A DNA stretch of 64,000 nt from Escherichia coli. GTDB taxonomy: Bacteria; Pseudomonadota; Gammaproteobacteria; Enterobacterales; Enterobacteriaceae. A program made the translations under genes and the position numbers. Under the pieces are notes generated by a model, which was given only the letters and a program-made list of their open reading frames with translations, was not told where the DNA came from and did not search any database. Shown here one piece after another: positions 4,936 through 30,233 of the stretch. Location: assembly GCF_036507355.1 (NCBI RefSeq), contig NZ_AP027877.1; one strand, written 5' to 3'. Position 1 is the stretch's first letter, and each line of letters begins with the position of its first letter.

Positions 4936-5955
4936 ATGTTGCAGTTTATTCTCCGACGTTTGGGACTCGTCATCCCCACGTTTATCGGTATTACCCTTCT
5001 CACATTTGCCTTTGTCCACATGATCCCGGGCGATCCGGTGATGATCATGGCGGGCGAGCGTGGGATCTCCCCAGAGCGTCACGCGCAGCTGCTGGCTGAA
5101 CTCGGCTTAGATAAACCGATGTGGCAGCAGTATCTCCATTACATTTGGGGCGTTATGCATGGCGATCTAGGCATTTCAATGAAAAGCCGCATCCCGGTTT
5201 GGGAAGAGTTCGTGCCGCGCTTTCAGGCCACGCTGGAACTTGGCGTCTGCGCGATGATTTTTGCTACGGCAGTCGGTATTCCGGTTGGTGTGCTGGCTGC
5301 GGTTAAACGCGGTTCCATTTTCGATCACACAGCGGTTGGCCTGGCGCTGACAGGTTATTCAATGCCTATCTTCTGGTGGGGAATGATGCTGATCATGCTG
5401 GTTTCGGTGCACTGGAACCTGACGCCCGTCTCCGGTCGTGTGAGTGACATGGTATTCCTCGATGATTCCAATCCGTTAACCGGTTTTATGCTGATCGACA
5501 CCGCCATCTGGGGTGAAGACGGCAACTTTATCGATGCCGTCGCCCATATGATCTTGCCCGCCATTGTGCTGGGTACCATCCCGCTGGCGGTCATTGTGCG
5601 TATGACGCGCTCCTCGATGCTGGAAGTGCTGGGTGAAGATTACATCCGCACCGCGCGCGCCAAAGGGTTGACCCGCATGCGGGTGATTATCGTCCATGCG
5701 CTGCGTAACGCGATGCTGCCGGTAGTGACCGTTATCGGCCTCCAGGTGGGAACATTGCTGGCGGGGGCGATTCTGACCGAAACCATCTTCTCGTGGCCCG
5801 GTCTGGGGCGCTGGTTGATTGACGCACTGCAACGCCGCGACTATCCGGTAGTGCAGGGCGGCGTATTGCTGGTGGCGACGATGATTATCCTCGTCAACCT
5901 GCTGGTCGATCTGCTGTACGGCGTGGTGAACCCGCGTATTCGTCATAAGAAGTAA
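4936..5955 (+). CDS. dppB: Dipeptide ABC transporter permease
   Basis: ORF 4780..5955 trimmed to ATG at 4936 (MLQFILRRLGLVIPTF), 339 aa. Confidence 0.9.
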   Translation: MLQFILRRLGLVIPTFIGITLLTFAFVHMIPGDPVMIMAGERGISPERHAQLLAELGLDKPMWQQYLHYIWGVMHGDLGISMKSRIPVWEEFVPRFQATLELGVCAMIFATAVGIPVGVLAAVKRGSIFDHTAVGLALTGYSMPIFWWGMMLIMLVSVHWNLTPVSGRVSDMVFLDDSNPLTGFMLIDTAIWGEDGNFIDAVAHMILPAIVLGTIPLAVIVRMTRSSMLEVLGEDYIRTARAKGLTRMRVIIVHALRNAMLPVVTVIGLQVGTLLAGAILTETIFSWPGLGRWLIDALQRRDYPVVQGGVLLVATMIILVNLLVDLLYGVVNPRIRHKK

Positions 5956-5964
5956 GGGGACATC

Positions 5965-6867
5965 ATGTCACAGGTTACTGAAAATAAAGTGATTAGCGCG
6001 CCGGTACCGATGACCCCTTTACAGGAGTTCTGGCACTATTTTAAACGCAACAAAGGCGCGGTCGTCGGGTTGGTTTACGTCGTCATCGTGCTGTTTATCG
6101 CGATCTTTGCCAACTGGATTGCGCCGTATAACCCGGCGGAACAGTTCCGCGATGCACTGCTCGCCCCGCCAGCCTGGCAGGAAGGCGGCAGCATGGCGCA
6201 CTTGCTGGGCACCGATGACGTAGGCCGTGATGTGCTGTCGCGGCTGATGTACGGCGCGCGCTTGTCGCTGCTGGTTGGCTGTCTGGTGGTGGTGTTATCG
6301 CTGATTATGGGCGTTATTCTCGGCCTGATCGCCGGTTACTTCGGCGGCCTGGTCGATAACATCATCATGCGCGTGGTCGATATCATGCTGGCGCTGCCAA
6401 GTCTGCTGTTGGCACTGGTGCTGGTGGCGATTTTCGGCCCGTCGATTGGTAACGCCGCGCTGGCGCTGACCTTTGTTGCCTTGCCGCACTATGTGCGCTT
6501 AACCCGCGCCGCCGTGCTGGTGGAAGTTAACCGCGATTACGTTACCGCGTCTCGCGTGGCAGGTGCCGGGGCGATGCGTCAGATGTTTATTAACATCTTC
6601 CCGAACTGCCTTGCGCCTCTGATTGTTCAGGCGTCGCTCGGTTTCTCTAACGCCATTCTCGATATGGCTGCTCTTGGTTTCCTCGGCATGGGGGCGCAGC
6701 CGCCAACACCAGAGTGGGGCACCATGCTCTCTGACGTGTTGCAGTTCGCGCAAAGCGCCTGGTGGGTCGTGACCTTCCCTGGTCTGGCGATCCTGCTGAC
6801 GGTGCTGGCATTTAACCTGATGGGTGACGGTCTGCGTGACGCGCTCGATCCCAAACTGAAGCAGTAA
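5965..6867 (+). CDS. dppC: Dipeptide ABC transporter permease
   Basis: 300 aa; polytopic membrane protein of the ABC permease family. Confidence 0.9.
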
Positions 6868-6877
6868 GAGGTTCGAG

Positions 6878-7861
6878 ATGGCGTTATTAAATGTAGATAA
6901 ATTATCGGTGCATTTCGGCGACGAAAGCGCACCGTTCCGCGCCGTAGACCGCATCAGCTACAGCGTGAAACAGGGCGAAGTGGTCGGGATTGTGGGTGAG
7001 TCCGGCTCTGGTAAGTCGGTCAGTTCACTGGCGATTATGGGGCTGATTGATTATCCGGGCCGCGTGATGGCGGAAAAGCTGGAGTTTAACGGTCAGGATT
7101 TGCAGCGTATCTCAGAAAAAGAGCGCCGCAATCTGGTGGGTGCCGAAGTGGCGATGATCTTCCAGGACCCGATGACCAGCCTTAACCCGTGCTACACCGT
7201 TGGTTTCCAGATTATGGAAGCGATTAAGGTGCATCAGGGCGGTAATAAGAGCACTCGCCGTCAGCGGGCGATTGACCTGCTGAATCAGGTCGGTATTCCC
7301 GATCCGGCATCGCGTCTGGATGTTTACCCGCATCAGCTTTCCGGCGGCATGAGCCAGCGCGTGATGATCGCCATGGCGATTGCCTGTCGGCCAAAACTGC
7401 TGATTGCCGATGAACCGACCACTGCGCTGGACGTGACCATTCAGGCGCAAATCATCGAACTACTGCTGGAGCTACAGCAGAAAGAGAACATGGCGCTGGT
7501 GTTAATTACCCATGACCTGGCGCTGGTGGCGGAAGCGGCACATAAAATCATCGTGATGTATGCCGGTCAGGTGGTGGAAACGGGCGATGCGCACGCCATC
7601 TTCCATGCGCCGCGTCACCCGTATACTCAGGCATTGCTGCGTGCGCTGCCGGAATTTGCTCAGGACAAAGAACGTCTGGCATCGTTGCCTGGCGTTGTTC
7701 CCGGCAAGTACGACCGCCCGAACGGCTGCCTGCTTAACCCGCGCTGCCCCTATGCCACTGACAGATGTCGCGCTGAAGAACCGGCGCTGAATATGCTCGC
7801 TGACGGGCGTCAGTCCAAATGCCATTACCCACTTGATGATGCCGGGAGGCCGACACTATGA
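6878..7861 (+). CDS. dppD: Dipeptide ABC transporter ATP-binding protein
   Basis: 327 aa; Walker A GESGSGKS, signature LSGGMSQR; 4-bp overlap with dppF. Confidence 0.9.
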
Positions 7862-8862
7862 GTACGCAAGAGGCCACCTCGCAACAACCGCTGTTGCAGG
7901 CTATCGACCTGAAAAAACATTATCCGGTGAAGAAAGGTATGTTCGCTCCGGAACGTCTGGTGAAGGCGCTGGACGGCGTTTCGTTTAACCTTGAACGTGG
8001 CAAAACGCTGGCGGTAGTAGGTGAATCTGGCTGCGGTAAATCGACCCTCGGTCGGTTGCTGACGATGATTGAAACGCCCACCGGCGGCGAGCTGTATTAC
8101 CAGGGGCAGGATCTGCTTAAGCACGATCCGCAGGCGCAGAAGCTGCGTCGGCAGAAAATCCAGATTGTCTTCCAGAACCCTTACGGTTCGCTGAATCCGC
8201 GTAAAAAAGTCGGGCAAATTCTTGAAGAGCCGCTGCTGATCAACACCAGCTTAAGCAAAGAACAGCGTCGGGAAAAAGCCCTGTCGATGATGGCGAAAGT
8301 CGGCCTGAAAACCGAGCACTATGACCGCTATCCGCATATGTTCTCCGGCGGACAACGTCAGCGTATCGCTATTGCCCGTGGTCTGATGCTCGACCCGGAC
8401 GTGGTGATTGCCGATGAACCGGTCTCCGCGCTGGACGTCTCGGTGCGTGCACAGGTGCTCAACCTGATGATGGATTTGCAGCAGGAACTGGGGCTTTCTT
8501 ATGTCTTCATCTCCCACGACCTGTCGGTGGTGGAGCACATTGCTGATGAAGTGATGGTGATGTACCTGGGCCGCTGCGTGGAGAAGGGAACGAAAGACCA
8601 AATCTTCAATAACCCGCGCCATCCGTACACTCAGGCGCTACTTTCCGCGACGCCGCGCCTGAATCCGGACGATCGCCGCGAGCGCATCAAACTCACCGGT
8701 GAACTGCCAAGCCCGCTGAATCCACCGCCGGGCTGCGCGTTTAATGCCCGCTGTCGTCGGCGCTTCGGCCCCTGCACCCAGTTGCAGCCGCAGCTAAAAG
8801 ACTACGGCGGTCAACTGGTAGCTTGTTTTGCTGTTGATCAGGATGAAAATCCGCAGCGTTAA
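7858..8862 (+). CDS. dppF: Dipeptide ABC transporter ATP-binding protein
   Basis: 334 aa; Walker [10 protein letters not shown], signature FSGGQRQR. Confidence 0.9.
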
Positions 8863-8891
8863 CTCACAAAACCGGGGCCATGCGCTCCGGT

Positions 8892-10163
8892 TTACTCAAT
8901 CAGCTTCAACAGTGGCGACAAGCATAGCAAAATGCCGTAAAGCAGAATCAGCCAGGCTTTAAATCCGCGAAGTTTTTCCAGTTGTGCGACTTTATAGATC
9001 AGGAAAAACGGAATGAGGCACGACACAATGCCATATAACGGGCTTCCCAACTGAAAGAACACCAGCACCGATACACGAAACGAAACCCAAATCGTCAACG
9101 TAATGACGATAAAAGCGCAGATCGCCAGAGTCAGCATGCGTGAGTTAATTTTCTTGGTATCAATAATTCGGCTTAACAGATTGAGAATAATGCCTTTAAT
9201 GGCCTCGTGGAAACCGAGATAAATGCCAAAGAATGCGGTCAGTACGGCAAAGATATTCAGCACCGTAGAGGTGATATGAATGATATGCCCAGGGATCACC
9301 TGCGCGGCCAGTGCCAGTGCCGAGATATTTTGTTCAAAGGCAGAAACGGCTTCTTCGTGGCTAATTGAGAAGGTAAACGAAAAGGCAAAAAACAGTATCA
9401 CCGCGATGAGCGTGATATAACTAATTCGGTGGGTACGCAGCGCGAGCCGGGTTGCCAGTACTTTATCCGCTTCCCGTTTACGATAGGCAATATTCATTGG
9501 GTTAAGTACCTGAATAAATACTGCAGAAAAGAAGCAAAATGGAATGGTAAGCAGGACATCGCGAAAAAAGACGGAGGCTTGCGGGAAGGCGGTTATATTG
9601 GCGAAATTCCAGTGCGGGATCATCGCAAAACCGAACACGACAATAATCCCTACTTTGACCACCACCATTGGCCCGGAAATCTTAAACAGTAATCGTTCAC
9701 CACCAGACGCAATCGCTACCAGTACGGCGAAAATAGCGACTTTATAAAGTAGAGATTGTGAAAGATCGGCATCGGTTAAACCGAAGGTTTTCAGGTACGA
9801 GGCGCTGTCGAAAACCACGGAGAGAGAGTAGATAAAAATCCCGTGGATAATCATCAAAAAGTAGATAACCCCGAGGAAAATTCCCCAGTTCTTCCCCAGG
9901 TAATGACTGATAATATCGGTGTAGTCATTACAGGAATCGCTTTCAGAAAGAGTTTTTAAATAAATGTCCTGCACTACCCAGGTGGCAGGATAAGCAATGA
10001 TCGCTGCGGTAATAAATACCCAAATTCCCTTCAAGCCAATTTGTACTGGCATCAGCACGGTTCCGGCACCAATCGCCATGCCTATGCATAATAAAACCCA
10101 GCCGAAGTCGTAGCGTGTAAACGGCAATTTCTGATCGTGTTTCGGTAGTGTGTTGTGCTGCAT
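8892..10163 (-). CDS. yhjV: Amino-acid permease family inner membrane transporter
   Basis: ORF 8892..10226 trimmed to [12 protein letters not shown] start (423 aa); polytopic membrane protein. Confidence 0.8.
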
Positions 10164-10521
10164 AAAGTCCTGTCCAGAAAGAAGTCGGCCTCGCAAAAAT
10201 GAATAAACCCAGTTTCTCTTGCGCAACAGGTGGAGAAGTCGAATACGCAGTATGTAAAAAATGAGGCAACAGATTCACTGGGGAGGTCGCGAGGAGGCGC
10301 AATTCTACAAAATTGCGCATTTCACTACCAGTCTGGAGTCAGCCCGGATATGAACTGCAACTATTGCAAATTAAGAAATTAAGCTGGAAGGCATCACGCA
10401 ATGAGGAAGATTGCCGGGTGCTGACAGTAAAAAGCAATCGTAAAATTAGCGGCAAGCCGGAAGGGTTCCGGTGAGGCGCAATGTTGCGGGGGCTTAATCC
10501 CTGGTGGCATTGGTTGCTGGA

Positions 10522-10590
10522 GAGAGAAAACCCCCGCACGTTGCAGGTATGCACCTGACAACACCACGGGGGCTAATCTTGAACCTAGAC
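10522..10590 (-). ncRNA. rdlD: Rdl antisense sRNA (antitoxin of the ldrD type I toxin-antitoxin pair)
   Basis: Minus strand reads GTCTAGGTTCAAGATTAGCCCCCGTGGTGTTGTCAGGTGCATACCTGCAACGTGCGGGGGTTTTCTCTC with a terminal hairpin and U-run, about 50 nt upstream of ldrD on the opposite strand. Confidence 0.6.
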
Positions 10591-10638
10591 CACTCAAGAA
10601 TAGCCGCGAAACGTTGTCATTACAACACAGGCGGCTAT

Positions 10639-10746
10639 ATGACGCTCGCAGAACTGGGCATGGCCTTCTGGCATGATTTAGCGGCTCCGGTCATTGCTGG
10701 CATTCTTGCCAGTATGATCGTGAACTGGCTGAACAAGCGGAAGTAA
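10639..10746 (+). CDS. ldrD: Type I toxin LdrD, 35-aa membrane peptide
   Basis: [35 protein letters not shown] at the 3' end of track ORF 10504..10746. Confidence 0.85.
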
Positions 10747-10749
10747 CGT

Positions 10750-10961
10750 GTCATGCGGGCGTCAGGCTGCCCTTTTTACAAAACCGCGATGCGCAGGCCG
10801 TTCAGCGCCAGCGCGTGGCCGATAACTTTCCCGGCAGCGATGCCTATTACAACTATGTGCTGACCCTGTTTGGACAAGGCTGGGATCAACACCGTTTCCG
10901 CTTCTCGACAAAAGGTGAGTTATTACCTGACTGGGGCCAGGAATGCGCAAATTCACACTAA
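10750..10961 (+). pseudogene. bcsZ: 3' remnant (about 70 codons) of endoglucanase bcsZ, lacking 5' portion and start
   Basis: Frame ending TAA 10959-10961 encodes ...[64 protein letters not shown], overlapping the bcsC start in the usual bcsZ-bcsC manner; nothing upstream except ldrD. Confidence 0.6.
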
Positions 10962-13900
10962 ACATATTCACGCTTTCCCTCGGTCTGGCCGTCATGCCGA
11001 TGGTCGAGGCAGCACCAACCGCTCAGCAACAGTTGCTGGAGCAAGTTCGGTTAGGCGAAGCGACCCATCGTGAAGACCTGGTACAGCAGTCGTTGTATCG
11101 GCTGGAACTTATTGATCCGAATAACCCGGACGTCGTTGCCGCCCGTTTCCGTTCTTTGTTACGTCAGGGCGATATTGATGGCGCGCAAAAACAGCTCGAT
11201 CGGCTGTCGCAGTTAGCGCCGAGTTCAAATGCGTATAAATCGTCGCGGACTACGATGCTGCTTTCCACGCCAGATGGTCGTCAGGCACTGCAACAGGCAA
11301 GATTGCAGGCGACGACTGGTCATGCAGAAGAAGCTGTGGCGAGTTACAACAAACTGTTCAACGGTGCGCCGCCGGAAGGTGACATTGCCGTCGAGTACTG
11401 GAGTACGGTGGCGAAAATTCCGGCTCGCCGTGGCGAAGCGATTAATCAGCTAAAACGCATTAATGCGGATGCACCGGGCAATACGGGCCTGCAAAACAAT
11501 CTGGCGCTATTGCTGTTTAGTAGCGATCGCCGTGACGAAGGTTTTGCCGTCCTGGAACAGATGGCGAAATCGAACGCCGGGCGCGAAGGGGCCTCTAAAA
11601 TCTGGTACGGGCAGATTAAAGACATGCCCGCAGCGATGCCAGCGTGCAGGCGCTGAAAAAATATCTTTCGATCTTTAGTGATGGTGATAGCGTGGCGGCT
11701 GCGCAATCGCAACTGGCAGAACAGCAAAAACAGCTGGCCGATCCTGCTTTCCGCGCTCGTGCGCAAGGTTTAGCGGCGGTGGACTCTGGTATGGCGGGTA
11801 AAGCCATTCCCGAACTACAACAGGCAGTGCGGGCGAACCCGAAAGACAGTGAGGCTCTGGGGGCGCTGGGCCAGGCATATTCACAGAAAGGCGATCGCGC
11901 CAATGCAGTGGCGAATCTGGAAAAAGCCCTCGCACTGGATCCGCACAGCAGCAACAACGACAAATGGAACAGTCTGCTGAAAGTAAACCGCTACTGGCTG
12001 GCAATCCAGCAGGGCGATGCTGCGCTGAAAGCCAATAATCCTGACCGGGCAGAACGCCTGTTCCAGCAGGCGCGTAATGTCGATAACACCGACAGTTATG
12101 CAGTGCTGGGGCTGGGCGATGTGGCGATGGCGCGAAAAGATTATCCCGCCGCCGAACGTTATTATCAGCAGACCTTGCGTATGGACAGCGGCAACACTAA
12201 CGCCGTGCGCGGGCTGGCAAATATTTACCGCCAGCAATCGCCAGAAAAAGCTGAAGCGTTTATCGCCTCGCTCTCTGCCAGTCAGCGACGTAGCATTGAT
12301 GATATCGAACGCAGCCTGCAAAACGACCGTCTGGCACAGCAGGCAGAGGCACTGGAAAACCAGGGCAAATGGGCGCAGGCGGCAGCACTTCAGCGGCAAC
12401 GACTGGCGCTGGACCCCGGCAGCGTATGGATTACTTACCGACTTTCGCAGGATCTCTGGCAGGCCGGACAACGCAGCCAGGCCGATACGTTAATGCGCAA
12501 TCTGGCGCAGCAGAAGCCGAACGACCCGGAGCAGGTTTACGCTTACGGGCTGTACCTCTCTGGTCATGACCAGGACAGAGCGGCGCTGGCGCATATCAAC
12601 AGCCTGCCGCGTGCGCAGTGGAGCAGCAATATTCAGGAGCTGGTTAATCGACTGCAAAGCGATCAGGTGCTGGAAACCGCTAATCGCCTGCGAGAAAGCG
12701 GCAAAGAAGCTGAAGCGGAAGCGATGCTGCGTCAGCAACCACCTTCCACGCGTATTGACCTCACGCTGGCTGACTGGGCGCAGCAGCGACGTGATTACAC
12801 CGCCGCCCGCGCTGCATATCAGAATGTCCTGACGCGGGAGCCAACTAACGCCGATGCCATTCTGGGGCTGTCGGAAGTGGATATTGCTGCCAGTGACAAA
12901 GCGGCGGCACGTAGCCAGCTGGCGAAACTGCCCGCTACCGATAACGCCTCACTGAACACACAGCGGCGCGTGGCGCTGGCGCAGGCGCAGCTTGGAAATA
13001 CCGCAGCGGCGCAGCAGACGTTTAATAAGTTGATCCCGCAGGCAAAATCTCAGCCACCGTCGATGGAAAGCGCGATGGTGCTGCGCGACGGTGCGAAGTT
13101 TGAAGCGCAGGCGGGCGATCCAAAGCAGGCGCTGGAAACCTACAAAGACGCCATGGTCGCATCCGGTGTGACTACGACGCGTCCGCAGGATAACGACACC
13201 TTTACCCGACTGACCCGTAACGACGAGAAAGATGACTGGCTGAAACGCGGCGTGCGCAGCGATGCGGCGGACCTCTATCGCCAGCAGGATCTTAACGTCA
13301 CCCTCGAGCATGATTACTGGGGTTCGAGCGGCACCGGTGGTTACTCCGATCTGAAAGCGCATACTACCATGTTGCAGGTGGATGCTCCGTATTCTGACGG
13401 GCGGATGTTCTTTCGCAGTGATTTCGTCAATATGAACGTCGGCAGTTTCTCCACTAATGCCGATGGCAAATGGGATGACAACTGGGGCACCTGTACATTA
13501 CAGGACTGTAGCGGCAACCGCAGCCAGTCGGATTCCGGTGCCAGCGTGGCGGTCGGCTGGCGAAATGACGTCTGGAGCTGGGATATCGGCACCACGCCGA
13601 TGGGCTTCAACGTGGTGGATGTGGTCGGCGGCATCAGTTACAGCGATGATATCGGGCCGCTGGGTTACACCGTTAACGCCCACCGTCGGCCCATCTCCAG
13701 TTCTTTGCTGGCCTTTGGTGGGCAAAAAGACTCCCCGAGCAATACCGGGAAAAAATGGGGCGGCGTGCGTGCCGACGGCGTGGGGCTAAGCCTGAGCTAC
13801 GATAAAGGTGAAGCAAACGGCGTCTGGGCATCGCTTAGCGGCGACCAGTTAACCGGTAAAAATGTCGAAGATAACTGGCGTGTGCGCTGGATGACGGGCT

Positions 13901-14415
13901 ATTACTATAAGGTCATCAACCAGAACAATCGCCGCGTCACAATCGGCCTGAACAACATGATCTGGCATTACGACAAAGACCTGAGTGGCTACTCACTCGG
14001 TCAGGGCGGTTACTACAGTCCGCAGGAATACCTGTCGTTTGCCATACCGGTGATGTGGCGGGAGCGCACGGAAAACTGGTCGTGGGAGCTGGGGGCGTCT
14101 GGCTCGTGGTCGCATTCGCGCACCAAAACCATGCCGCGGTATCCGCTGATGAATCTGATCCCGACTGACTGGCAGGAAGAAGCTGCGCGGCAATCCAACG
14201 ATGGCGGCAGCAGTCAGGGCTTTGGCTATACGGCGCGGGCATTACTTGAGCGTCGCGTCACATCCAACTGGTTTGTTGGCACGGCAATTGATATCCAGCA
14301 GGCGAAAGATTACGCGCCCAGCCATTTCCTGCTCTATGTACGTTATTCCGCCGCTGGATGGCAGGGTGACATGGATTTACCGCCGCAGCCGCTGATACCT
14401 TACGCCGACTGGTAA
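10943..14415 (+). pseudogene. bcsC: Cellulose synthase outer-membrane subunit BcsC (TPR protein), disrupted by a -1 frameshift near 11630
   Basis: Two consecutive ORFs (10943..11656, 237 aa; 11644..14415, 923 aa) in different frames; total span 3473 nt is not a multiple of 3; frame 1 hits a stop at 11654-11656 while frame 2 continues SDASVQALKKYLSIF. Confidence 0.8.
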
Positions 14416-14496
14416 GTTTTCAGATAGCGCCTCTCTTAATGCCGCTGCGATCGGGTATACTCGGGCGGCAATCTGGGATTTCCGGGGGGAGACAAT

Positions 14497-16485
14497 TTGC
14501 GCGTAAGTCGCTCGTTAACAATCAAGCAGATGGCAATGGTGGCAGCCGTTGTCCTGGTGTTCGTTTTTATTTTTTGCACCGTTTTGCTGTTCCATCTGGT
14601 CCAGCAGAATCGCTATAACACGGCTACGCAACTGGAAAGCATTGCTCGCTCTGTCCGCGAACCCTTATCTTCAGCTATTTTGAAAGGCGATATTCCCGAA
14701 GCGGAAGCTATTCTTGCCAGCATTAAACCGGCAGGCGTGGTCAGCCGTGCCGATGTAGTGCTGCCTAACCAGTTCCAGGCGCTGCGTAAAAGTTTTATTC
14801 CAGAGCGTCCGGTGCCGGTAATGGTTACTCGCCTGTTTGAGCTACCGGTTCAAATCTCGCTGGGCGTTTACTCGCTCGAACGTCCGGCAAATCCGCAGCC
14901 AATTGCCTATCTGGTGCTACAGGCGGATTCCTTCCGTATGTATAAGTTCGTGATGAGCACCCTCTCAACGTTAGTGACCATTTACTTACTTTTGTCATTA
15001 ATATTGACGGTGGCGATTAGCTGGTGCATTAACCGCCTGATTTTGCATCCGTTACGCAATATTGCTCGCGAACTTAACGCCATCCCAGCCCAGGAGCTTG
15101 TTGGTCACCAACTGGCATTACCGCGTCTGCATCAGGACGATGAAATCGGTATGTTGGTGCGCAGTTACAACCTCAACCAGCAATTGCTGCAGCGCCATTA
15201 TGAAGAACAGAACGAAAATGCGATGCGCTTCCCGGTGTCGGATTTGCCGAACAAAGCCTTGCTGATGGAGATGCTGGAGCAGGTTGTCGCGCGTAAACAA
15301 ACCACCGCGCTGATGATCATCACCTGTGAAACCCTGCGTGATACTGCGGGTGTGCTGAAAGAGGCGCAACGAGAAATTCTGCTGCTGACGCTGGTGGAAA
15401 AACTCAAATCGGTACTGTCGCCACGTATGATCCTCGCGCAGATTAGCGGTTATGACTTTGCTGTCATTGCCAACGGTGTACAGGAACCGTGGCACGCAAT
15501 CACTTTGGGTCAGCAAGTGCTCACTATCATGAGCGAGCGCCTGCCGATTGAACGTATTCAACTCCGTCCGCACTGTAGCATTGGCGTGGCGATGTTCTAC
15601 GGCGATCTCACCGCCGAACAGCTTTACAGTCGCGCTATTTCTGCGGCATTTACCGCTCGCCATAAAGGCAAGAATCAGATTCAGTTCTTTGATCCGCAGC
15701 AGATGGAAGCTGCCCAGAAGCGGTTGACGGAAGAGAGCGATATCCTTAATGCACTGGAAAATCATCAGTTTGCTATTTGGTTACAGCCACAGGTCGAGAT
15801 GACCAGCGGTAAACTGGTCAGTGCGGAAGTGTTACTGCGTATCCAGCAACCGGATGGCAGTTGGGACCTGCCGGATGGCTTAATCGATCGCATTGAGTGC
15901 TGTGGGCTGATGGTGACCGTCGGTCACTGGGTGCTGGAAGAGTCCTGTCGATTGCTTGCAGCCTGGCAAGAGCGCGGCATTATGCTGCCCTTGTCGGTAA
16001 ACCTCTCAGCGCTGCAACTGATGCACCCAAATATGGTGGCGGATATGCTGGAACTGTTAACCCGCTATCGCATTCAGCCGGGAACACTGATTCTGGAAGT
16101 GACAGAAAGCCGACGTATTGACGACCCTCATGCTGCGGTGGCAATCCTCCGTCCGCTGCGCAATGCCGGAGTTCGGGTGGCGCTGGATGATTTCGGCATG
16201 GGCTACGCAGGGCTGCGTCAGCTGCAGCATATGAAATCGTTGCCAATCGACGTACTGAAAATCGACAAAATGTTTGTTGAAGGCTTGCCGGAAGATAGCA
16301 GCATGATTGCTGCAATTATCATGCTGGCGCAGAGCCTGAACTTACAAATGATTGCCGAAGGCGTGGAGACTGAAGCACAACGCGACTGGCTGGCAAAAGC
16401 GGGCGTTGGTATTGCCCAGGGCTTCCTTTTTGCTCGTCCACTCCCTATTGAAATCTTCGAAGAGAGTTACCTGGAAGAAAAGTAG
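14497..16485 (+). CDS. pdeK: c-di-GMP phosphodiesterase with HAMP-GGDEF-EAL architecture
   Basis: 662 aa, N-terminal TM segments, EAL-type C-terminal domain; track ORF starts at a TTG, true start may be a nearby ATG. Confidence 0.8.
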
Positions 16486-17954: not shown

Positions 17955-18174
17955 TCTCATCACTTATGCCCGCACTCCCTTCCCCGAGTGCGGGTGTTTG
18001 CGCATAATTGACCCCTGTGCCTGAACTTACCACCTGGGTGAGTTCAGGTTTATTTCACTTCTTCCGTGACATTTTCATGTTCTTGCGGTCTAACACGAAG
18101 TGTTTTTAACGTCATTTAGACTGACCGACAACGGGCAGTTTTTTTATTACCAGGATAGTTGATCAGGGGTTCAC

Positions 18175-19671
18175 ATGCAGGGCACAAAAATTCGACTTTT
18201 AGCGGGCGGTTTGCTGATGATGGCCACTGCTGGCTATGTGCAGGCAGATGCGCTCCAGCCTGATCCAGCATGGCAACAGGGGACGCTTTCCAACGGTTTA
18301 CAGTGGCAAGTGCTGACCACCCCCCAGCGTCCCAGCGATCGTGTTGAAATTCGCCTGCTGGTTAATACCGGTTCGCTCGCCGAAAGTACACAACAGAGCG
18401 GTTACAGTCACGCCATCCCTCGTATTGCGCTAACGCAAAGCGGTGGCCTTGACGCAGCACAGGCGCGTTCATTGTGGCAGCAGGGGATCGACCCTAAACG
18501 CCCGATGCCGCCGGTAATTGTCTCTTATGACACCACGCTGTTTAATCTGAGTTTGCCCAATAACCGTAACGATTTGCTGAAAGAGGCGCTCTCTTATCTG
18601 GCAAATGCCACTGGCAAACTGACCATCACACCAGAAACCATCAACCACGCGCTGCAAAGTCAGGACATGGTGGCAACCTGGCCTGCCGATACTAAAGAGG
18701 GCTGGTGGCGCTATCGTCTGAAAGGATCAACCTTGTTAGGTCACGATCCTGCCGATCCGCTGAAACAACCCGTTGAAGCGGAAAAGATTAAAGATTTCTA
18801 TCAGAAATGGTACACCCCGGATGCAATGACGCTGCTGGTGGTGGGAAACGTGGATGCGCGCTCGGTTGTCGACCAAATCAACAAAACGTTTGGCGAACTG
18901 AAAGGCAAACGTGAAACACCGGCTCCGGTGCCGACGCTTTCTCCGCTGCGTGCGGAAGCGGTGAGTATTATGACTGACGCGGTGCGTCAGGACCGGTTAT
19001 CTATCATGTGGGATACGCCGTGGCAGCCGATTCGTGAATCAGCCGCACTGCTGCGCTACTGGCGTGCGGACCTGGCCCGTGAGGCGCTGTTCTGGCATGT
19101 TCAGCAAGCGTTAAGCGCCAGTAACAGCAAAGACATCGGTCTTGGATTTGACTGCCGTGTGCTGTATCTGCGTGCGCAGTGTGCCATCAACATCGAATCA
19201 CCAAACGACAAGCTGAACAGCAACCTTAATCTGGTGGCGCGTGAACTGGCGAAGGTTCGCGATAAAGGTCTGCCGGAAGAAGAGTTCAATGCGTTAGTGG
19301 CGCAAAAGAAACTGGAGCTGCAGAAACTGTTTGCCGCCTATGCACGAGCTGATACCGATATTCTGATGGGTCAGCGGATGCGTTCGTTGCAAAATCAGGT
19401 TGTCGATATCGCGCCGGAGCAGTATCAGAAACTGCGGCAGGATTTCCTTAACAGCCTGACTGTGGAGATGTTAAATCAGGATCTGCGTCAGCAGTTGTCG
19501 AATGATATGGCGTTAATACTGCTGCAGCCGAAAGGCGAGCCGGAATTTAACATGAAAGCGTTGCAGGCGGCCTGGGATCAAATCATGGCCCCATCTACCG
19601 CCACTGCGACCACCTCTGTCGCCACGGATGACGTACATCCTGAAGTGACGGATATTCCACCTGCACAGTAA
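18175..19671 (+). CDS. yhjJ: Putative periplasmic M16-family zinc peptidase
   Basis: 498 aa with signal peptide; conserved position between dctA and kdgK. Confidence 0.8.
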   Translation: MQGTKIRLLAGGLLMMATAGYVQADALQPDPAWQQGTLSNGLQWQVLTTPQRPSDRVEIRLLVNTGSLAESTQQSGYSHAIPRIALTQSGGLDAAQARSLWQQGIDPKRPMPPVIVSYDTTLFNLSLPNNRNDLLKEALSYLANATGKLTITPETINHALQSQDMVATWPADTKEGWWRYRLKGSTLLGHDPADPLKQPVEAEKIKDFYQKWYTPDAMTLLVVGNVDARSVVDQINKTFGELKGKRETPAPVPTLSPLRAEAVSIMTDAVRQDRLSIMWDTPWQPIRESAALLRYWRADLAREALFWHVQQALSASNSKDIGLGFDCRVLYLRAQCAINIESPNDKLNSNLNLVARELAKVRDKGLPEEEFNALVAQKKLELQKLFAAYARADTDILMGQRMRSLQNQVVDIAPEQYQKLRQDFLNSLTVEMLNQDLRQQLSNDMALILLQPKGEPEFNMKALQAAWDQIMAPSTATATTSVATDDVHPEVTDIPPAQ

Positions 19672-19766
19672 TGCCTGATGGTGATGAGTTAGCACAACCA
19701 TCAGGTATTTATGGATGAGCTGGATAGAGGGGTAACACTTTATCCAGCCTTTTGCATATGCTGCGT

Positions 19767-20696
19767 TTACGCTGGCATCGCCTCACGCGGGATAATCGCG
19801 CCGCGATACTGAATAACGGTACTTGCGGTCAGGTGCCCGCGTTTCGCTGCGTTTTCCGCACTGCCGCCCGTCAAACGTACCGCCAGATAACCGGCACTGA
19901 AAGAGTCGCCAGCTGCGGTGGTATCGATCACTTTTTCTTTCGGCAGTTTCACCGCTGGAACATCCACTAACCCTTCGCCAGCAATAGACACCAGGCAAGA
20001 ATCCGCCCCGCGTTTCACCACCACTTCTTTCACGCCCGCGTTATGGGTGCGCGCAATGACGTCTTCCACCGGCTGTTGACCCCACAGCGCGTCTTCATCG
20101 TCCAGCGTCAGGAAGGCGATATCCGTGCATTCCAGCATTTGTTGGTACACCTGCTGTGTCTCTTCTTTGCTGGCCCACAGGCGCGGACGATAGTTATTGT
20201 CGAAAATCACTTTTCCGCCGTTGGCGCGGCATTCGCGCAGCAGGGAAAGCAGCTTTTCGCGGCTGGTCGGGCTTAAGATCGCCAGGCTAATCCCGCTCAG
20301 GTAGAGATAATCGAAATTCGCCAGCTCTTCGCAAATCGCCGCAGACTGCTCGCTCTCCAGCCAGAATTTGGCGGCGGCTTCGTTACGCCAGTAGTAGAAC
20401 GTACGTTCGCCGGTGCTGTCGGTTTCAATGTAGTAAAGGCCCGGAAGACGGTTTTCCATCCGTTGGGTCAGGGAAGTATCAACGTTCTCGCCGTGCCAGG
20501 CGTCCAGCATCTGCTGGCTAAAACTGTCCGTTCCCAGCGCCGTTACGTAATGAACGGTTAATGCCGCAGGATCGACCTGACGGGCGATATAGACGGAAGT
20601 GTTCAGGGTATCGCCGCCGAAACCGCGCTTAACGTCCGCGCCTTTCTCGGAAAGCTCAATCATGCATTCGCCAATCACGGCAATCTTTTTGGACAT
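19767..20696 (-). CDS. kdgK: 2-dehydro-3-deoxygluconokinase
   Basis: Track ORF 19767..21044 trimmed to MSKKIAVIGECMIELSEKG (309 aa); PfkB sugar-kinase family. Confidence 0.9.
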   Translation of the reverse strand: MSKKIAVIGECMIELSEKGADVKRGFGGDTLNTSVYIARQVDPAALTVHYVTALGTDSFSQQMLDAWHGENVDTSLTQRMENRLPGLYYIETDSTGERTFYYWRNEAAAKFWLESEQSAAICEELANFDYLYLSGISLAILSPTSREKLLSLLRECRANGGKVIFDNNYRPRLWASKEETQQVYQQMLECTDIAFLTLDDEDALWGQQPVEDVIARTHNAGVKEVVVKRGADSCLVSIAGEGLVDVPAVKLPKEKVIDTTAAGDSFSAGYLAVRLTGGSAENAAKRGHLTASTVIQYRGAIIPREAMPA

Positions 20697-20927
20697 AGTC
20701 GTGAACCTGATCTGTAAAAAATTAGCGTTAGTTTGCGCTGTGGTGGTTTGCTGGTCAACCATGTTAAAACAGTGTTCCATTATTTTTTTGAGCCAGAACG
20801 TATTCCTGAAAGATTCCGTTGTGGAGTGGGGAAATTTACCCCGGCCAGGCGGTAAAGTTCTGCCCTTACGCGCCGATAATCTTTGTCGAGTCCGGGCTGC
20901 ATCACTTTTAAACACAGGACATCTTTG

Positions 20928-21695
20928 ATGATAAGGCAGGTTATCCAGCGAATAAGCAACCCTGAAGCAAGCATCGAGAGCTTGCAGGAACGGCGTTTTT
21001 GGTTGCAGTGTGAGCGTGCTTACACCTGGCAGCCGATCTATCAAACATGCGGACGGTTAATGGCCGTGGAGCTATTAACGGTGGTCACGCATCCCTTGAA
21101 CCCTTCGCAACGCCTGCCGCCGGATCGCTATTTTACTGAAATCACCGTCAGCCATCGGATGGAGGTTGTGAAAGAGCAGATTGATTTGCTGGCGCAAAAA
21201 GCCGACTTCTTTATAGAGCACGGCCTGTTGGCATCGGTCAATATTGATGGCCCTACGCTCATCGCCCTGCGTCAGCAACCAAAAATCCTGCGCCAGATTG
21301 AGCGTCTTCCCTGGCTGCGTTTCGAACTGGTGGAGCATATCCGTCTGCCGAAAGATTCAACCTTTGCCTCGATGTGTGAATTTGGCCCGCTGTGGCTGGA
21401 TGATTTTGGTACCGGGATGGCAAATTTCTCTGCACTAAGTGAAGTGCGTTATGACTACATCAAAATCGCGCGAGAACTGTTTGTGATGCTGCGTCAGTCG
21501 CCGGAAGGACGCACACTCTTTTCTCAGCTTTTACATCTAATGAATCGCTATTGTCGCGGGGTGATTGTCGAGGGCGTAGAAACGCCGGAAGAGTGGCGTG
21601 ATGTACAGAACTCGCCCGCATTCGCCGCACAAGGCTGGTTTCTTTCACGCCCGGCACCGATAGAAACGCTGAATACGGCGGTTCTGGCGCTATAA
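20928..21695 (+). CDS. pdeH: EAL-domain c-di-GMP phosphodiesterase
   Basis: Track ORF 20883..21695 trimmed to MIRQVIQRISNPEA (255 aa); EAL domain. Confidence 0.9.
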   Translation: MIRQVIQRISNPEASIESLQERRFWLQCERAYTWQPIYQTCGRLMAVELLTVVTHPLNPSQRLPPDRYFTEITVSHRMEVVKEQIDLLAQKADFFIEHGLLASVNIDGPTLIALRQQPKILRQIERLPWLRFELVEHIRLPKDSTFASMCEFGPLWLDDFGTGMANFSALSEVRYDYIKIARELFVMLRQSPEGRTLFSQLLHLMNRYCRGVIVEGVETPEEWRDVQNSPAFAAQGWFLSRPAPIETLNTAVLAL

Positions 21696-21764
21696 GCTGC
21701 CTCATTTTCCGCCTGGCTGGACTATCTTTAGGACTGGCACAGGAAGAATATGAGGAAGCGAACG

Positions 21765-23825
21765 ATGAGCAAGGCAGGCAAAATAACCGCTGCGATTTCA
21801 GGGGCTTTCTTGTTGTTGATTGTCGTGGCGATCATTTTGATTGCAACTTTTGACTGGAATCGACTCAAACCGACCATCAACCAGAAAGTCTCTGCGGAGT
21901 TGAATCGTCCGTTCGCTATCCGTGGCGATCTGGGCGTGGTGTGGGAGCGGCAAAAACAAGAAACTGGCTGGCGCAGCTGGGTGCCGTGGCCCCATGTACA
22001 CGCGGAAGACATCATTCTTGGCAATCCACCGGATATTCCCGAAGTCACGATGGTGCATTTGCCACGCGTAGAGGCAACGCTGGCCCCGCTGGCGCTGCTG
22101 ACCAAAACGGTCTGGCTGCCGTGGATCAAACTCGAAAAGCCCGACGCGCGCCTGATTCGCCTCTCCGAAAAGAACAATAACTGGACGTTTAATCTCGCCA
22201 ACGATGACAACAAAGACGCGAATGCAAAGCCGTCGGCGTGGTCGTTTCGGCTGGATAATATTCTTTTCGATCAAGGGCGGATCGCCATTGATGACAAAGT
22301 AAGCAAAGCGGATCTGGAAATTTTTGTCGATCCGTTAGGTAAGCCGCTGCCGTTCAGCGAAGTTACTGGATCGAAAGGTAAAGCGGATAAAGAAAAGGTG
22401 GGCGATTACGTTTTTGGCCTGAAGGCGCAGGGACGTTATAACAGTGAACCGCTCACGGGTAAGGGGAAAATTGGCGGTATGCTGGCGCTGCGTGGCGAAG
22501 GGACGCCGTTTCCGGTACAGGCTGATTTCCGTTCAGGTAATACCCGTGTTGCTTTTGATGGCGTCGTGAATGACCCAATGAAGATGGGCGGTGTCGATTT
22601 ACGGCTTAAATTTTCTGGCGATTCACTGGGTGATCTCTATGAACTGACGGGCGTTCTGCTGCCCGATACCCCGCCGTTTGAAACGGATGGTCGGCTGGTA
22701 GCGAAAATCGACACTGAAAAATCGTCGGTCTTTGATTATCGCGGCTTTAATGGGCGAATTGGCGATAGCGATATCCACGGTTCTCTGGTCTACACCACCG
22801 GCAAGCCACGACCAAAACTGGAAGGTGATGTCGAGTCGCGGCAATTGCGGCTGGCGGACCTGGGACCGTTGATTGGCGTTGATTCCGGGAAAGGGGCAGA
22901 AAAGTCGAAACGGTCTGAACAGAAGAAGGGCGAAAAAAGCGTTCAGCCTGCGGGTAAAGTGCTGCCTTATGACCGCTTCGAAACCGATAAATGGGATGTC
23001 ATGGATGCCGATGTTCGCTTCAAAGGCCGACGTATCGAGCATGGCAGTAGCCTGCCGATTAGCGATCTTTCTACTCATATCATCCTCAAAAATGCTGACC
23101 TGCGCCTGCAACCGCTGAAATTTGGCATGGCGGGTGGCAGCATTGCGGCGAATATTCATCTGGAAGGCGATAAAAAGCCGATGCAGGGGCGGGCAGATAT
23201 TCAGGCTCGTCGACTGAAACTGAAAGAACTGATGCCCGATGTGGAACTGATGCAGAAGACGCTGGGGGAAATGAACGGTGACGCGGAACTGCGCGGTAGC
23301 GGTAACTCGGTGGCGGCACTTTTAGGCAACAGTAACGGCAACCTGAAACTGTTGATGAATGACGGGCTGGTGAGCCGCAACCTGATGGAGATTGTTGGGC
23401 TGAATGTCGGCAACTACATTGTCGGTGCGATATTTGGTGACGATGAGGTGCGGGTGAACTGCGCGGCGGCGAATCTGAATATTGCCAACGGCGTGGCGCG
23501 CCCGCAGATTTTTGCTTTCGATACTGAGAACGCGTTGATTAATGTTACCGGCACGGCAAGTTTTGCTTCGGAACAGCTGGATTTGACTATTGATCCGGAG
23601 AGTAAAGGGATTCGGATTATCACACTGCGTTCGCCGCTGTATGTGCGTGGGACGTTTAAAAATCCGCAGGCTGGAGTGAAAGCCGGACCGTTGATTGCCC
23701 GTGGTGCTGTTGCTGCGGCACTGGCAACGCTGGTTACGCCAGCGGCAGCGTTGCTGGCACTGATCTCACCTTCCGAAGGGGAGGCTAATCAGTGCCGGAC
23801 GATTTTGTCGCAGATGAAGAAGTGA
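21765..23825 (+). CDS. yhjG: AsmA-family membrane protein
   Basis: Track ORF 21750..23825 trimmed to MSKAGKITAAISGAFLLL (686 aa); N-terminal TM anchor. Confidence 0.8.
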   Translation: MSKAGKITAAISGAFLLLIVVAIILIATFDWNRLKPTINQKVSAELNRPFAIRGDLGVVWERQKQETGWRSWVPWPHVHAEDIILGNPPDIPEVTMVHLPRVEATLAPLALLTKTVWLPWIKLEKPDARLIRLSEKNNNWTFNLANDDNKDANAKPSAWSFRLDNILFDQGRIAIDDKVSKADLEIFVDPLGKPLPFSEVTGSKGKADKEKVGDYVFGLKAQGRYNSEPLTGKGKIGGMLALRGEGTPFPVQADFRSGNTRVAFDGVVNDPMKMGGVDLRLKFSGDSLGDLYELTGVLLPDTPPFETDGRLVAKIDTEKSSVFDYRGFNGRIGDSDIHGSLVYTTGKPRPKLEGDVESRQLRLADLGPLIGVDSGKGAEKSKRSEQKKGEKSVQPAGKVLPYDRFETDKWDVMDADVRFKGRRIEHGSSLPISDLSTHIILKNADLRLQPLKFGMAGGSIAANIHLEGDKKPMQGRADIQARRLKLKELMPDVELMQKTLGEMNGDAELRGSGNSVAALLGNSNGNLKLLMNDGLVSRNLMEIVGLNVGNYIVGAIFGDDEVRVNCAAANLNIANGVARPQIFAFDTENALINVTGTASFASEQLDLTIDPESKGIRIITLRSPLYVRGTFKNPQAGVKAGPLIARGAVAAALATLVTPAAALLALISPSEGEANQCRTILSQMKK

Positions 23826-28807: not shown

Positions 28808-30233
28808 TAATGCCGATCAGTTAAGGATCAGTTGACCGATCCAGTGGCTGTGTAAGAATCCGGAAACGCTCACTCGTTTCCGGATTTTTTTATGCACATT
28901 GGACAGGCTCTTGATCTGGTATCCCGTTACGATTCTCTGCGTAACCCACTGACTTCTCTGGGGGATTACCTCGACCCCGAACTCATCTCTCGTTGCCTTG
29001 CCGAATCAGGTACTGTAACGCTACGCAAGCGCCGTCTTCCCCTCGAAATGATGGTCTGGTGTATTGTTGGCATGGCGCTTGAGCGTAAAGAACCTCTTCA
29101 CCAGATTGTGAATCGCCTGGACATCATGCTGCCGGGCAATCGCCCCTTCGTTGCCCCCAGTGCTGTTATTCAGGCCCGCCAGCGCCTGGGAAGTGAGGCT
29201 GTCCGCCGCGTGTTCACGAAAACAGCGCAGCTCTGGCATAACGCCACGCCGCATCCGCACTGGTGCGGCCTGACCCTGCTGGCCATCGATGGTGTGTTCT
29301 GGCGCACACCGGATACACCAGAGAACGATGCAGCCTTCCCTCGCCAGACACATGCCGGGACCCCGGCGCTCTACCCGCAGGTCAAAATGGTCTGCCAGAT
29401 GGAACTGACCAGCCATCTGCTGACGGCTGCAGCCTTCGGCACGATGAAGAACAGCGAAAATGAGCTTGCTGAGCAACTTATAGAACAAACCGGCGATAAC
29501 ACTCTGACGTTAATGGATAAAGGTTATTACTCACTGGGATTGTTAAATGCCTGGAGCCTGGCGGGAGAACACCGCCACTGGATGATCCCTCTCAGAAAGG
29601 GAGCGCAATATGAAGAGATCAGAAAACTGGGTAAAGGCGATCATCTGGTGAAGCTGAAAACCAGCCCGCAGGCACGAAAAAAGTGGCCGGGACTGGGAAA
29701 TGAGGTGACAGCCCGCCTGCTGACCGTGACGCGCAAAGGAAAAGTCTGCCATCTGCTGACGTCGATGACGGACGCCATGCGCTTCCCCGGAGGAGAAATG
29801 GCGGATCTGTACAGTCATCGCTGGGAAATCGAACTGGGATACAGGGAGATAAAACAGACGATGCAACTGAGCAGGCTGACGCTGAGAAGTAAAAAGCCTG
29901 AGCTTGTGGAGCAAGAGCTGTGGGGTGTCTTACTGGCTTATAATCTGGTGAGATATCAGATGATTAAAATGGCGGAACATCTGAAAGGTTACTGGCCAAA
30001 TCAACTGAGCTTCTCAGAATCATGCGGAATGGTGATGAGAATGCTGATGATATTGCAGGGCGCTTCACCGGGACGTATACCGGAGCTGATGCGCGATCTT
30101 GCAAGTATGGGACAACTTGTGAAATTACCGACAAGAAGGGAAAGGGCCTTCCCGAGAGTGGTAAAGGAGAGGCCCTGGAAATACCCCACAGCCCCGAAAA
30201 AGAGCCAGTCAGTTGCTTAACTGACTGGCATTA
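28808..30233 (+). mobile_element. IS4 insertion sequence (1426 bp)
   Basis: Terminal inverted repeats TAATGCCGATCAGTTAAG (left) and TAATGCCAGTCAGTTAAG (right, reverse complement); exact length 1426 bp; single 442-aa transposase; 12-bp direct duplication. Confidence 0.92.
28892..30220 (+). CDS. insG: IS4 transposase
   Basis: 442 aa, [26 protein letters not shown]...; DDE transposase of the IS4 family. Confidence 0.92.

Follow-up and report, generated by a model that had tools for sequence, protein, structure and literature searches.

An IS-free deletion of the cellulose biosynthesis genes joins ldrD to the 3' end of bcsZ in Escherichia coli

The window, i.e., the 64-kb stretch of Escherichia coli chromosome analyzed here, lacks most of its cellulose biosynthesis locus. 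The type I toxin gene ldrD is joined, through a short piece of its own 3' flank, to the last codons of bcsZ, and the genes that separate the two in other E. coli genomes are missing. This deletion at the bcs locus is confirmed. Very probably, the present state of the locus goes back to a single deletion of approximately 10.6 kb between two GCTGCC repeats by short-homology illegitimate recombination, followed by loss of cellulose synthesis, fixation of the deleted allele in a small lineage, and a later frameshift in the remaining bcsC gene.

In the usual E. coli arrangement, yhjV and ldrD/rdlD are followed by bcsGFE on the opposite strand, by bcsRQABZC, and by hmsP. The gene order in the window reads eptB, dppABCDF, yhjV on the reverse strand, ldrD/rdlD, a bcsZ stub, bcsC, hmsP, dctA, and yhjJ onward. 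The features surrounding the joint are collected in Table 1. Look-ups of the HmsP and YhjV proteins returned very common alleles only and added nothing to the placement of the lineage.

Table 1. Features at and around the ldrD-bcsZ joint. Positions are those of the window; XJ34 and Res13 (Res13-Lact-PEA14-20) are E. coli genomes used for comparison.
Feature	Position	Strand	Remarks
yhjV, intact left neighbor, aromatic amino-acid transporter family	8892..10163	-	423 aa, identical to a common E. coli allele; collinear with the annotation of XJ34 and Res13
rdlD antisense RNA, intact; antitoxin of the Ldr/Rdl type I toxin-antitoxin pair	10525..10590	-	Rfam RF01813, 89.2 bits (gathering 50), E 2.8e-19, full-length 1-66/66
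ldrD, 35-codon type I toxin gene, intact	10639..10746	+	TAA stop 10744-10746; peptide same as annotated ldrD of XJ34 and Res13
Retained native ldrD 3' flank, last 19 nt left of the joint	10747..10765	+	Matches 7379-7397 of the XJ34 locus; 5' arm of the first native hairpin 3' of ldrD
Weak junction hairpin and U-run (GGGCG-TCAGGC-TGCCC TTTTT)	10757..10777	+	Terminator-like scan; 5-bp stem, then U5
Deletion joint, 6-bp microhomology GCTGCC	10766..10771	.	Single copy in the window; one at each parental site in intact genomes
bcsZ remnant, codons 305-368 and stop	10772..10961	+	Frame opens at 10767 inside the microhomology; stop 10959-10961
bcsC, outer-membrane cellulose channel, orphaned and frameshifted	10943..14415	+	ORFs 10943-11656 and 11644-14415; 98.7% DNA identity to annotated XJ34 bcsC
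-1 frameshift site in bcsC, T missing between bases	11630..11631	+	Alignment with XJ34 and Res13
hmsP/pdeK, intact right neighbor, GGDEF-EAL biofilm regulator	14497..16485	+	662 aa, identical to a very common E. coli allele; position same in all loci

The extent of the deletion follows from comparison with XJ34 (NZ_CP098231.1). BLAST of window positions 8800-15000 yields two collinear blocks, 8800-10771 corresponding to 5432-7403 of the XJ34 locus and 10760-15000 corresponding to 18001-22242, which overlap by 12 nt at the joint and leave 10,609 bp of XJ34 DNA unmatched between them. According to the XJ34 annotation, the missing interval comprises bcsG, bcsF, bcsE, bcsR, bcsQ, bcsA, bcsB, and the first 304 codons of bcsZ. 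No counterpart of the XJ34 interval encoding the synthase BcsA and its partner BcsB was found in the 64-kb window, and the divergent bcsEFG module (c-di-GMP binding, pEtN transferase), which lies inside the missing interval, is absent from the window as well. The first-pass annotation of this region had proposed a clean, IS-free deletion reaching from bcsG into bcsZ and joining ldrD to the bcsZ tail, with bcsG through bcsB and most of bcsZ as the lost genes; the collinear blocks, the structure of the joint, and the XJ34 annotation of the missing interval bear this out. Its estimate of approximately 14 kb of missing DNA corresponds to the whole locus including bcsC and has to be lowered to the value given above. 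The XJ34 locus carries a frameshifted bcsG (7465-9143 of the locus) and an internal stop in bcsQ (11372-12124), and hence represents another natural cellulose-defective genotype. Because the lesion in its bcsG is a 1-nt frameshift, the loss from an intact ancestral locus probably amounted to 10,610 bp.

The joint coincides with a 6-bp sequence common to both parental sites. In XJ34, GCTGCC is found at 7398-7403 on the left (…CAGGCTGCCgtaatgg) and at 18007-18012 on the right (…CATGCTGCCcttttta), the latter copy lying at bcsZ codons 303-305. Intact genomes read ...GGGCGTCAG-GCTGCC-GTAATGG at the left site and ...CCGCCAT-GCTGCC-CTTTTTAC at the right site, and the joint in the window reads ...GGGCGTCAG-GCTGCC-CTTTTTAC. 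Both contexts are conserved among the fetched loci: on the left, GCTGCC is followed by (G/A)TAATGGCAA (n=28), and on the right it is preceded by TTCTGCCGCCAT (n=12). Homology at the joint is perfect over 6 bp and imperfect over a longer stretch, in which 10 of 12 nt agree. A microhomology of at least 6 bp is expected at a random joint with a chance of approximately 0.0013. Between positions 10600 and 10961, the two parental sequences account for every base of the window. No IS, target-site duplication, filler DNA, or repeat was found at the joint in the window, and no IS abuts the joint in the window or in its four relatives described below. The earlier reading that neither an IS nor a duplication marks the junction is thus upheld by the window sequence and the repeat search.

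Taken together, 6 bp of perfect homology extended by imperfect agreement at 10 of 12 nt and the lack of IS, duplication, and filler argue for short-homology illegitimate recombination. The flanks are collinear with intact relatives, a single repeat copy remains at the joint, and mobile element, duplication, and filler are all missing there. Deletions between short direct repeats, or by short-homology-dependent illegitimate recombination, have reportedly been described in E. coli by Albertini et al. (1982) and by Ikeda and co-workers. Like these deletions, the window joint keeps one repeat copy, has hairpin-forming DNA at one endpoint, and involves no mobile element. We see no feature that would set the window apart from them, its mechanism being read from the scar.

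On this basis, the following course of events can be proposed. In an ancestor with the usual arrangement of yhjV, ldrD/rdlD, bcsGFE, bcsRQABZC, and hmsP, the GCTGCC in the 3' hairpin region of ldrD would have been joined to the GCTGCC at bcsZ codons 303-305 by a single deletion of ~10.6 kb. The route would be RecA-independent and of the slippage or break-repair type, as we infer from the scar alone. The event would have removed the genes of the catalytic core, bcsA and bcsB, the accessory genes bcsR and bcsQ, and bcsE, bcsF, and bcsG, which form the c-di-GMP sensor and phosphoethanolamine-modification module, together with five sixths of the endoglucanase gene bcsZ, the operon promoters, and the ldrD/bcsG terminator. 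Thereby, bcsC would have been left behind ldrD as a promoterless orphan, in which the window strain would later have gained a 1-nt frameshift.

An IS-mediated origin has to be weighed against this course. An IS near ldrD or in bcsZ might have generated an adjacent deletion and then have been lost. IS elements occur nearby in the lineage, namely, an IS4-family element at 28.9-30.2 kb and IS600 in chuA, and an independent ldrD-bcsZ' deletion with IS1 at its joint is known from Res13-Lact-PEA14-20. However, the window joint contains neither IS sequence nor an inverted-repeat remnant nor a target duplication. It falls exactly into the 6-bp repeat shared by the parental sites, and removal of an IS leaving such a scar would constitute a second improbable event. 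We consider an IS-mediated origin very unlikely and prefer direct recombination between the GCTGCC repeats.

To the right of the joint, the sequence following ldrD had been read as the C-terminal tail of BcsZ running into the bcsC start. This is confirmed by BLASTP: the translation of 10767-10958 is identical to residues 305-368 of XJ34 BcsZ (64 of 64 positions). Of the periplasmic GH8 endoglucanase of 368 aa, only these residues are encoded in the window. The remnant has no start codon of its own until a GTG at 10815 and, as elsewhere in E. coli, its stop overlaps with the start of bcsC (10943). Two details of the first-pass annotation are to be corrected, as the remnant spans 64 rather than ~70 codons and begins 20-25 nt after the ldrD stop rather than within a few bp of it; the position of the ldrD stop itself had been given correctly, a TAA being read there. 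A putative chimeric ORF of 36 codons (10753-10863) has its ATG in the ldrD 3' flank and, past the joint, runs through bcsZ sequence in a different frame. This ORF is a predicted product of the deletion.

To the left of the joint, the LDR-D unit is present with its 35-codon toxin ORF and, upstream of this ORF, the cis-encoded antisense rdl. The Ldr_toxin domain (Pfam PF13940) is listed on the identical ldrD gene in two related loci. What has been lost is the native 3' end of the unit. Natively, ldrD is followed by two strong hairpins; the left breakpoint falls into the 5' arm of the first, and the second is the Rho-independent terminator common to ldrD and the convergent bcsG. Both hairpins are lost in the window; in XJ34, the native 3' region folds at -45.3 kcal/mol (z -3.3). 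The hairpin found at the junction instead folds at -7.7 kcal/mol, which is no better than shuffled sequences (z +1.17). With its U-run, it is a possible, though feeble, substitute for the lost ldrD terminator. The idea that it was selected as a replacement terminator was rejected, since its stability does not exceed that of shuffled sequence and 1.5 such scan hits per region are expected by chance. Tandem ldr toxin genes occur between yhjV and bcsG in one to four copies among E. coli genomes, at a spacing of ~483 bp. The window has one copy; its ancestor may have had a different number before the deletion.

It is conceivable that a new transcription unit arose through the deletion. In that case, transcription starting at the ldrD promoter would pass the feeble hairpin into the bcsZ stub and bcsC, which may alter stability or translation of the toxin mRNA and may keep the orphan BcsC expressed. 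bcsC is intact in four of the five genomes of the lineage and is kept in most of the ~89 complete E. coli genomes without bcsA, which would hint at a cellulose-independent use of BcsC. We regard this reading as a long shot.

The distribution of the junction is narrow. It is found in none of the 5,426 complete RefSeq E. coli genomes. In 5,425 of them, the ldrD side and the bcsZ side are not adjacent at all; the exception is Res13-Lact-PEA14-20, where IS1 lies between the two and the right end differs. Likewise, the junction 27-30-mer is absent from the GTDB species-representative genomes and from the JGI metagenome contigs. Relatives were found via an exact match of the BcsC protein of 1157 aa that results from repair of the frameshift. 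Four independent public draft assemblies, GCA_021425525.1, GCA_016660925.1, GCA_905398585.1, and Logan SRR32181686, carry the deletion. Over 15-23 kb, their identity to the window is 99.97-100%, and they share its gene layout, in which ldrD precedes bcsC by 196 nt. Alignment of the 331-nt junction in GCA_021425525.1 and GCA_016660925.1 showed it to be identical in both.

These assemblies also bear on the question whether the junction might be an assembly artefact, i.e., a collapse or misjoin at repeated LDR sequence. Indeed, short-read assemblies often break at ldr units, which are present as multi-copy repeats. However, each of the four independent assemblies has the same junction mid-contig, in contigs of 19-69 kb, and where its flanks were fetched they are collinear over at least 9 kb to either side. 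The right-hand partner of the junction, bcsZ, is unique sequence. The probability of an artefact is practically negligible. The presence of the deletion in four near-identical assemblies argues that it is genuine rather than a misassembly, and it is, as judged from these genomes, fixed in a small clone.

Among the 5,426 complete RefSeq E. coli genomes, the best identity to the window is 98.6% to the right and 99.1% to the left of the joint. Since these values are comparatively low, the lineage is not represented in the complete-genome set. The contigs of the relatives are short (19-69 kb) and end at IS elements where checked. The window is thus apparently derived from an under-sampled, IS-bearing E. 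coli lineage. A search for a close relative with an intact bcs locus found none, the nearest intact loci being at most 98.7% identical; therefore, the ancestral sequence at both breakpoints was deduced from other E. coli. Four contigs that share the YhjJ allele of the window and have kept bcsB, bcsZ, and bcsC were rejected as representatives of the ancestral state, as they are only 97.9-98.7% identical. A full-text literature search with the accessions of the related assemblies matched no paper.

A Shigella or EIEC origin was considered in view of IS600, IS4, the disruption of chuA, and the shortness of the relatives' contigs, but may be less likely: the public records are all named Escherichia coli, and the IS density of Shigella dysenteriae 1 is far above the two elements present in 64 kb here. 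As a separate observation, the ENA metagenome contig ERZ1310673 NODE_905 starts exactly at the first base of GCTGCC. Its positions 1-317 are identical to window positions 10766-11082, after which it diverges (98.65% identity overall). Such a start would be the de Bruijn graph branch point expected if deleted and intact haplotypes co-occur in a sample.

The second lesion of the locus affects bcsC. A single T is missing in the context CATGCCCG[T]CAGCG, which contains no homopolymer and no known methylation motif. In the window, bcsC is thereby split into ORFs of 237 and 923 codons instead of encoding one intact TPR/beta-barrel BcsC of 1157 aa. Restoration of the T yields the 1157-aa protein with its exact match in public data. 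In all four near-identical relatives, the T is present and bcsC is intact, so that the frameshift is found in the window only. An exact-protein look-up of the 237-aa and 923-aa BcsC fragments returned no record. The bcsC frameshift reported in the first-pass annotation thus holds for the window and does not extend to the genotype of the lineage.

Two readings of the missing T compete. It might be a consensus or sequencing error, in which case the strain would possess an intact orphan bcsC like its relatives. The presence of the T in all four near-identical assemblies would fit an error, and so would the lack of any record for the two fragments. The T is, however, missing outside a homopolymer or known methylation motif, and it is the sole indel in ~39 kb of the window covered by contigs of the same lineage (943-28671 and 43003-54197), with 0-5 substitutions per contig. 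From these low numbers we conclude that the window assembly is clean. Furthermore, this single indel sits in the one long gene of the region that would be without function, which is better explained by neutral decay than by random error. An error therefore appears rather unlikely, though it keeps a tangible share of the probability. Probably, the frameshift is a real, strain-specific secondary lesion later than the deletion; its late and strain-specific origin is suggested by the intact bcsC of all four relatives. Decay of this kind would be expected, because no role is left for bcsC after the deletion.

Cellulose synthesis is catalyzed by a core of BcsA and BcsB, and its phosphoethanolamine modification depends on BcsG as the modifying enzyme. 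As the locus lacks the BcsA/BcsB core, the strain is strongly predicted, from the 64-kb window, to make neither cellulose nor pEtN-cellulose. This prediction would fail if translocation or inversion had carried the bcs genes to another place in the genome, from which cellulose may still be made. In favor of such a relocation, a single 64-kb window was examined, and IS-rich genomes do rearrange. Relocation would, however, have to split bcsZ, part bcsC from bcsRQAB, and create a second novel joint, whereas a single microhomology joint whose flanks keep their native order and orientation is what a simple deletion leaves behind. In addition, the bcsC gene remaining at the locus is frameshifted. 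Relocation is hence extremely unlikely, and a simple deletion remains the preferred explanation.

Losses of cellulose genes are not unique to this lineage. They are documented as convergent for ST95 and numerous further STs of E. coli, for every Shigella ST examined, and for host-restricted Salmonella (PMC10881479). The window resembles these cases in that bcsRQABZC/bcsEFG was naturally inactivated, with the inactive state fixed in a clone and spread clonally, and in that the genotype is predicted to be cellulose-negative. It differs from the alleles described there in that eight genes are affected at once by a 10.6-kb deletion, and, unlike those cases, no link to virulence is known for the window lineage. 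The screen in PMC10881479 was confined to genes covered to at least 95%, in which it scored frameshift and nonsense alleles; by this requirement, whole-gene deletions would be missed.

Deletions of bcs genes are indeed encountered in complete E. coli genomes. bcsA has no match in 89 of the 5,426 genomes and is covered to at least 80% in 5,312, whereas bcsC has no match in only four and reaches this coverage in 5,402. Absence of bcsA from 89 genomes and of bcsC from only four indicates that partial bcs deletions sparing bcsC recur.

Two of these deletions invite direct comparison. In Res13-Lact-PEA14-20 (NZ_CP062871.1; 6447-7433 of the fetched locus), almost the same interval was deleted independently, and ldrD and an intact bcsC flank the gap as they do in the window lineage. 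The order there is ldrD, IS1 at the joint, a 96-nt bcsZ remnant, and bcsC; on the left, the deletion begins beyond the ldrD terminator, on the right it reaches ~100 nt further into bcsZ, and both mechanism and lineage differ. The deletion in LR-64-2 (NZ_AP027595.1; 7599-9150 of the fetched locus) is, like that of the window, clean and IS-free and removes the synthase gene. It differs from the window deletion in its smaller size: bcsG' is joined to the final 150 nt of bcsA, and bcsB, bcsZ, bcsC, and the ldrD terminator are retained. By its sequence, the window allele is a new IS-free example of an already known and recurrent kind of gene loss.

E. coli K-12 is likewise cellulose-negative, with a premature stop in bcsQ (reportedly described by Serra et al. 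in 2013). Like this common laboratory and commensal genotype, the window would combine abolished cellulose synthesis with intact neighboring genes. Unlike the K-12 lesion, which is a repairable point mutation, the deletion has physically removed the genes, and reversion is not possible.

For the strain and its small lineage, these findings provide a genotype call, namely, a predicted irreversible loss of the machinery for cellulose and pEtN-cellulose. They add a whole-operon deletion to the convergent cellulose losses of the Enterobacteriaceae, which so far were mostly represented by point and frameshift alleles, and they draw attention to the fact that deletions of this type are overlooked by screens demanding high gene coverage. 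Furthermore, they suggest a stepwise decay in which the operon deletion came first and the frameshift of the orphaned bcsC followed. Otherwise, the case is an ordinary one that opens neither a new mechanism nor a new question.

Some further observations concern the window at a distance from the joint. For a 407-aa ORF (58890-60113, reverse strand) that neighbors slp (58077-58808) toward gor, NCBIfam yielded no match at E <= 1e-5. An ORF of 442 aa (28892-30220) between yhjB and treF encodes an IS4-family transposase (NF033592, 304 bits); XJ34 has no insertion at this place. At least one complete E. coli genome, 14EC007, aligns in one piece of matching length up to window position 30000 and may carry an IS4-family element at the same site. 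The haem receptor gene chuA (53003-56253) is split by IS600 (~54120-55391) into an N-terminal ORF of 375 aa and a C-terminal ORF of 334 aa, and short-read contigs of the same lineage stop exactly at this IS600. Haem uptake via ChuA is probably lost.
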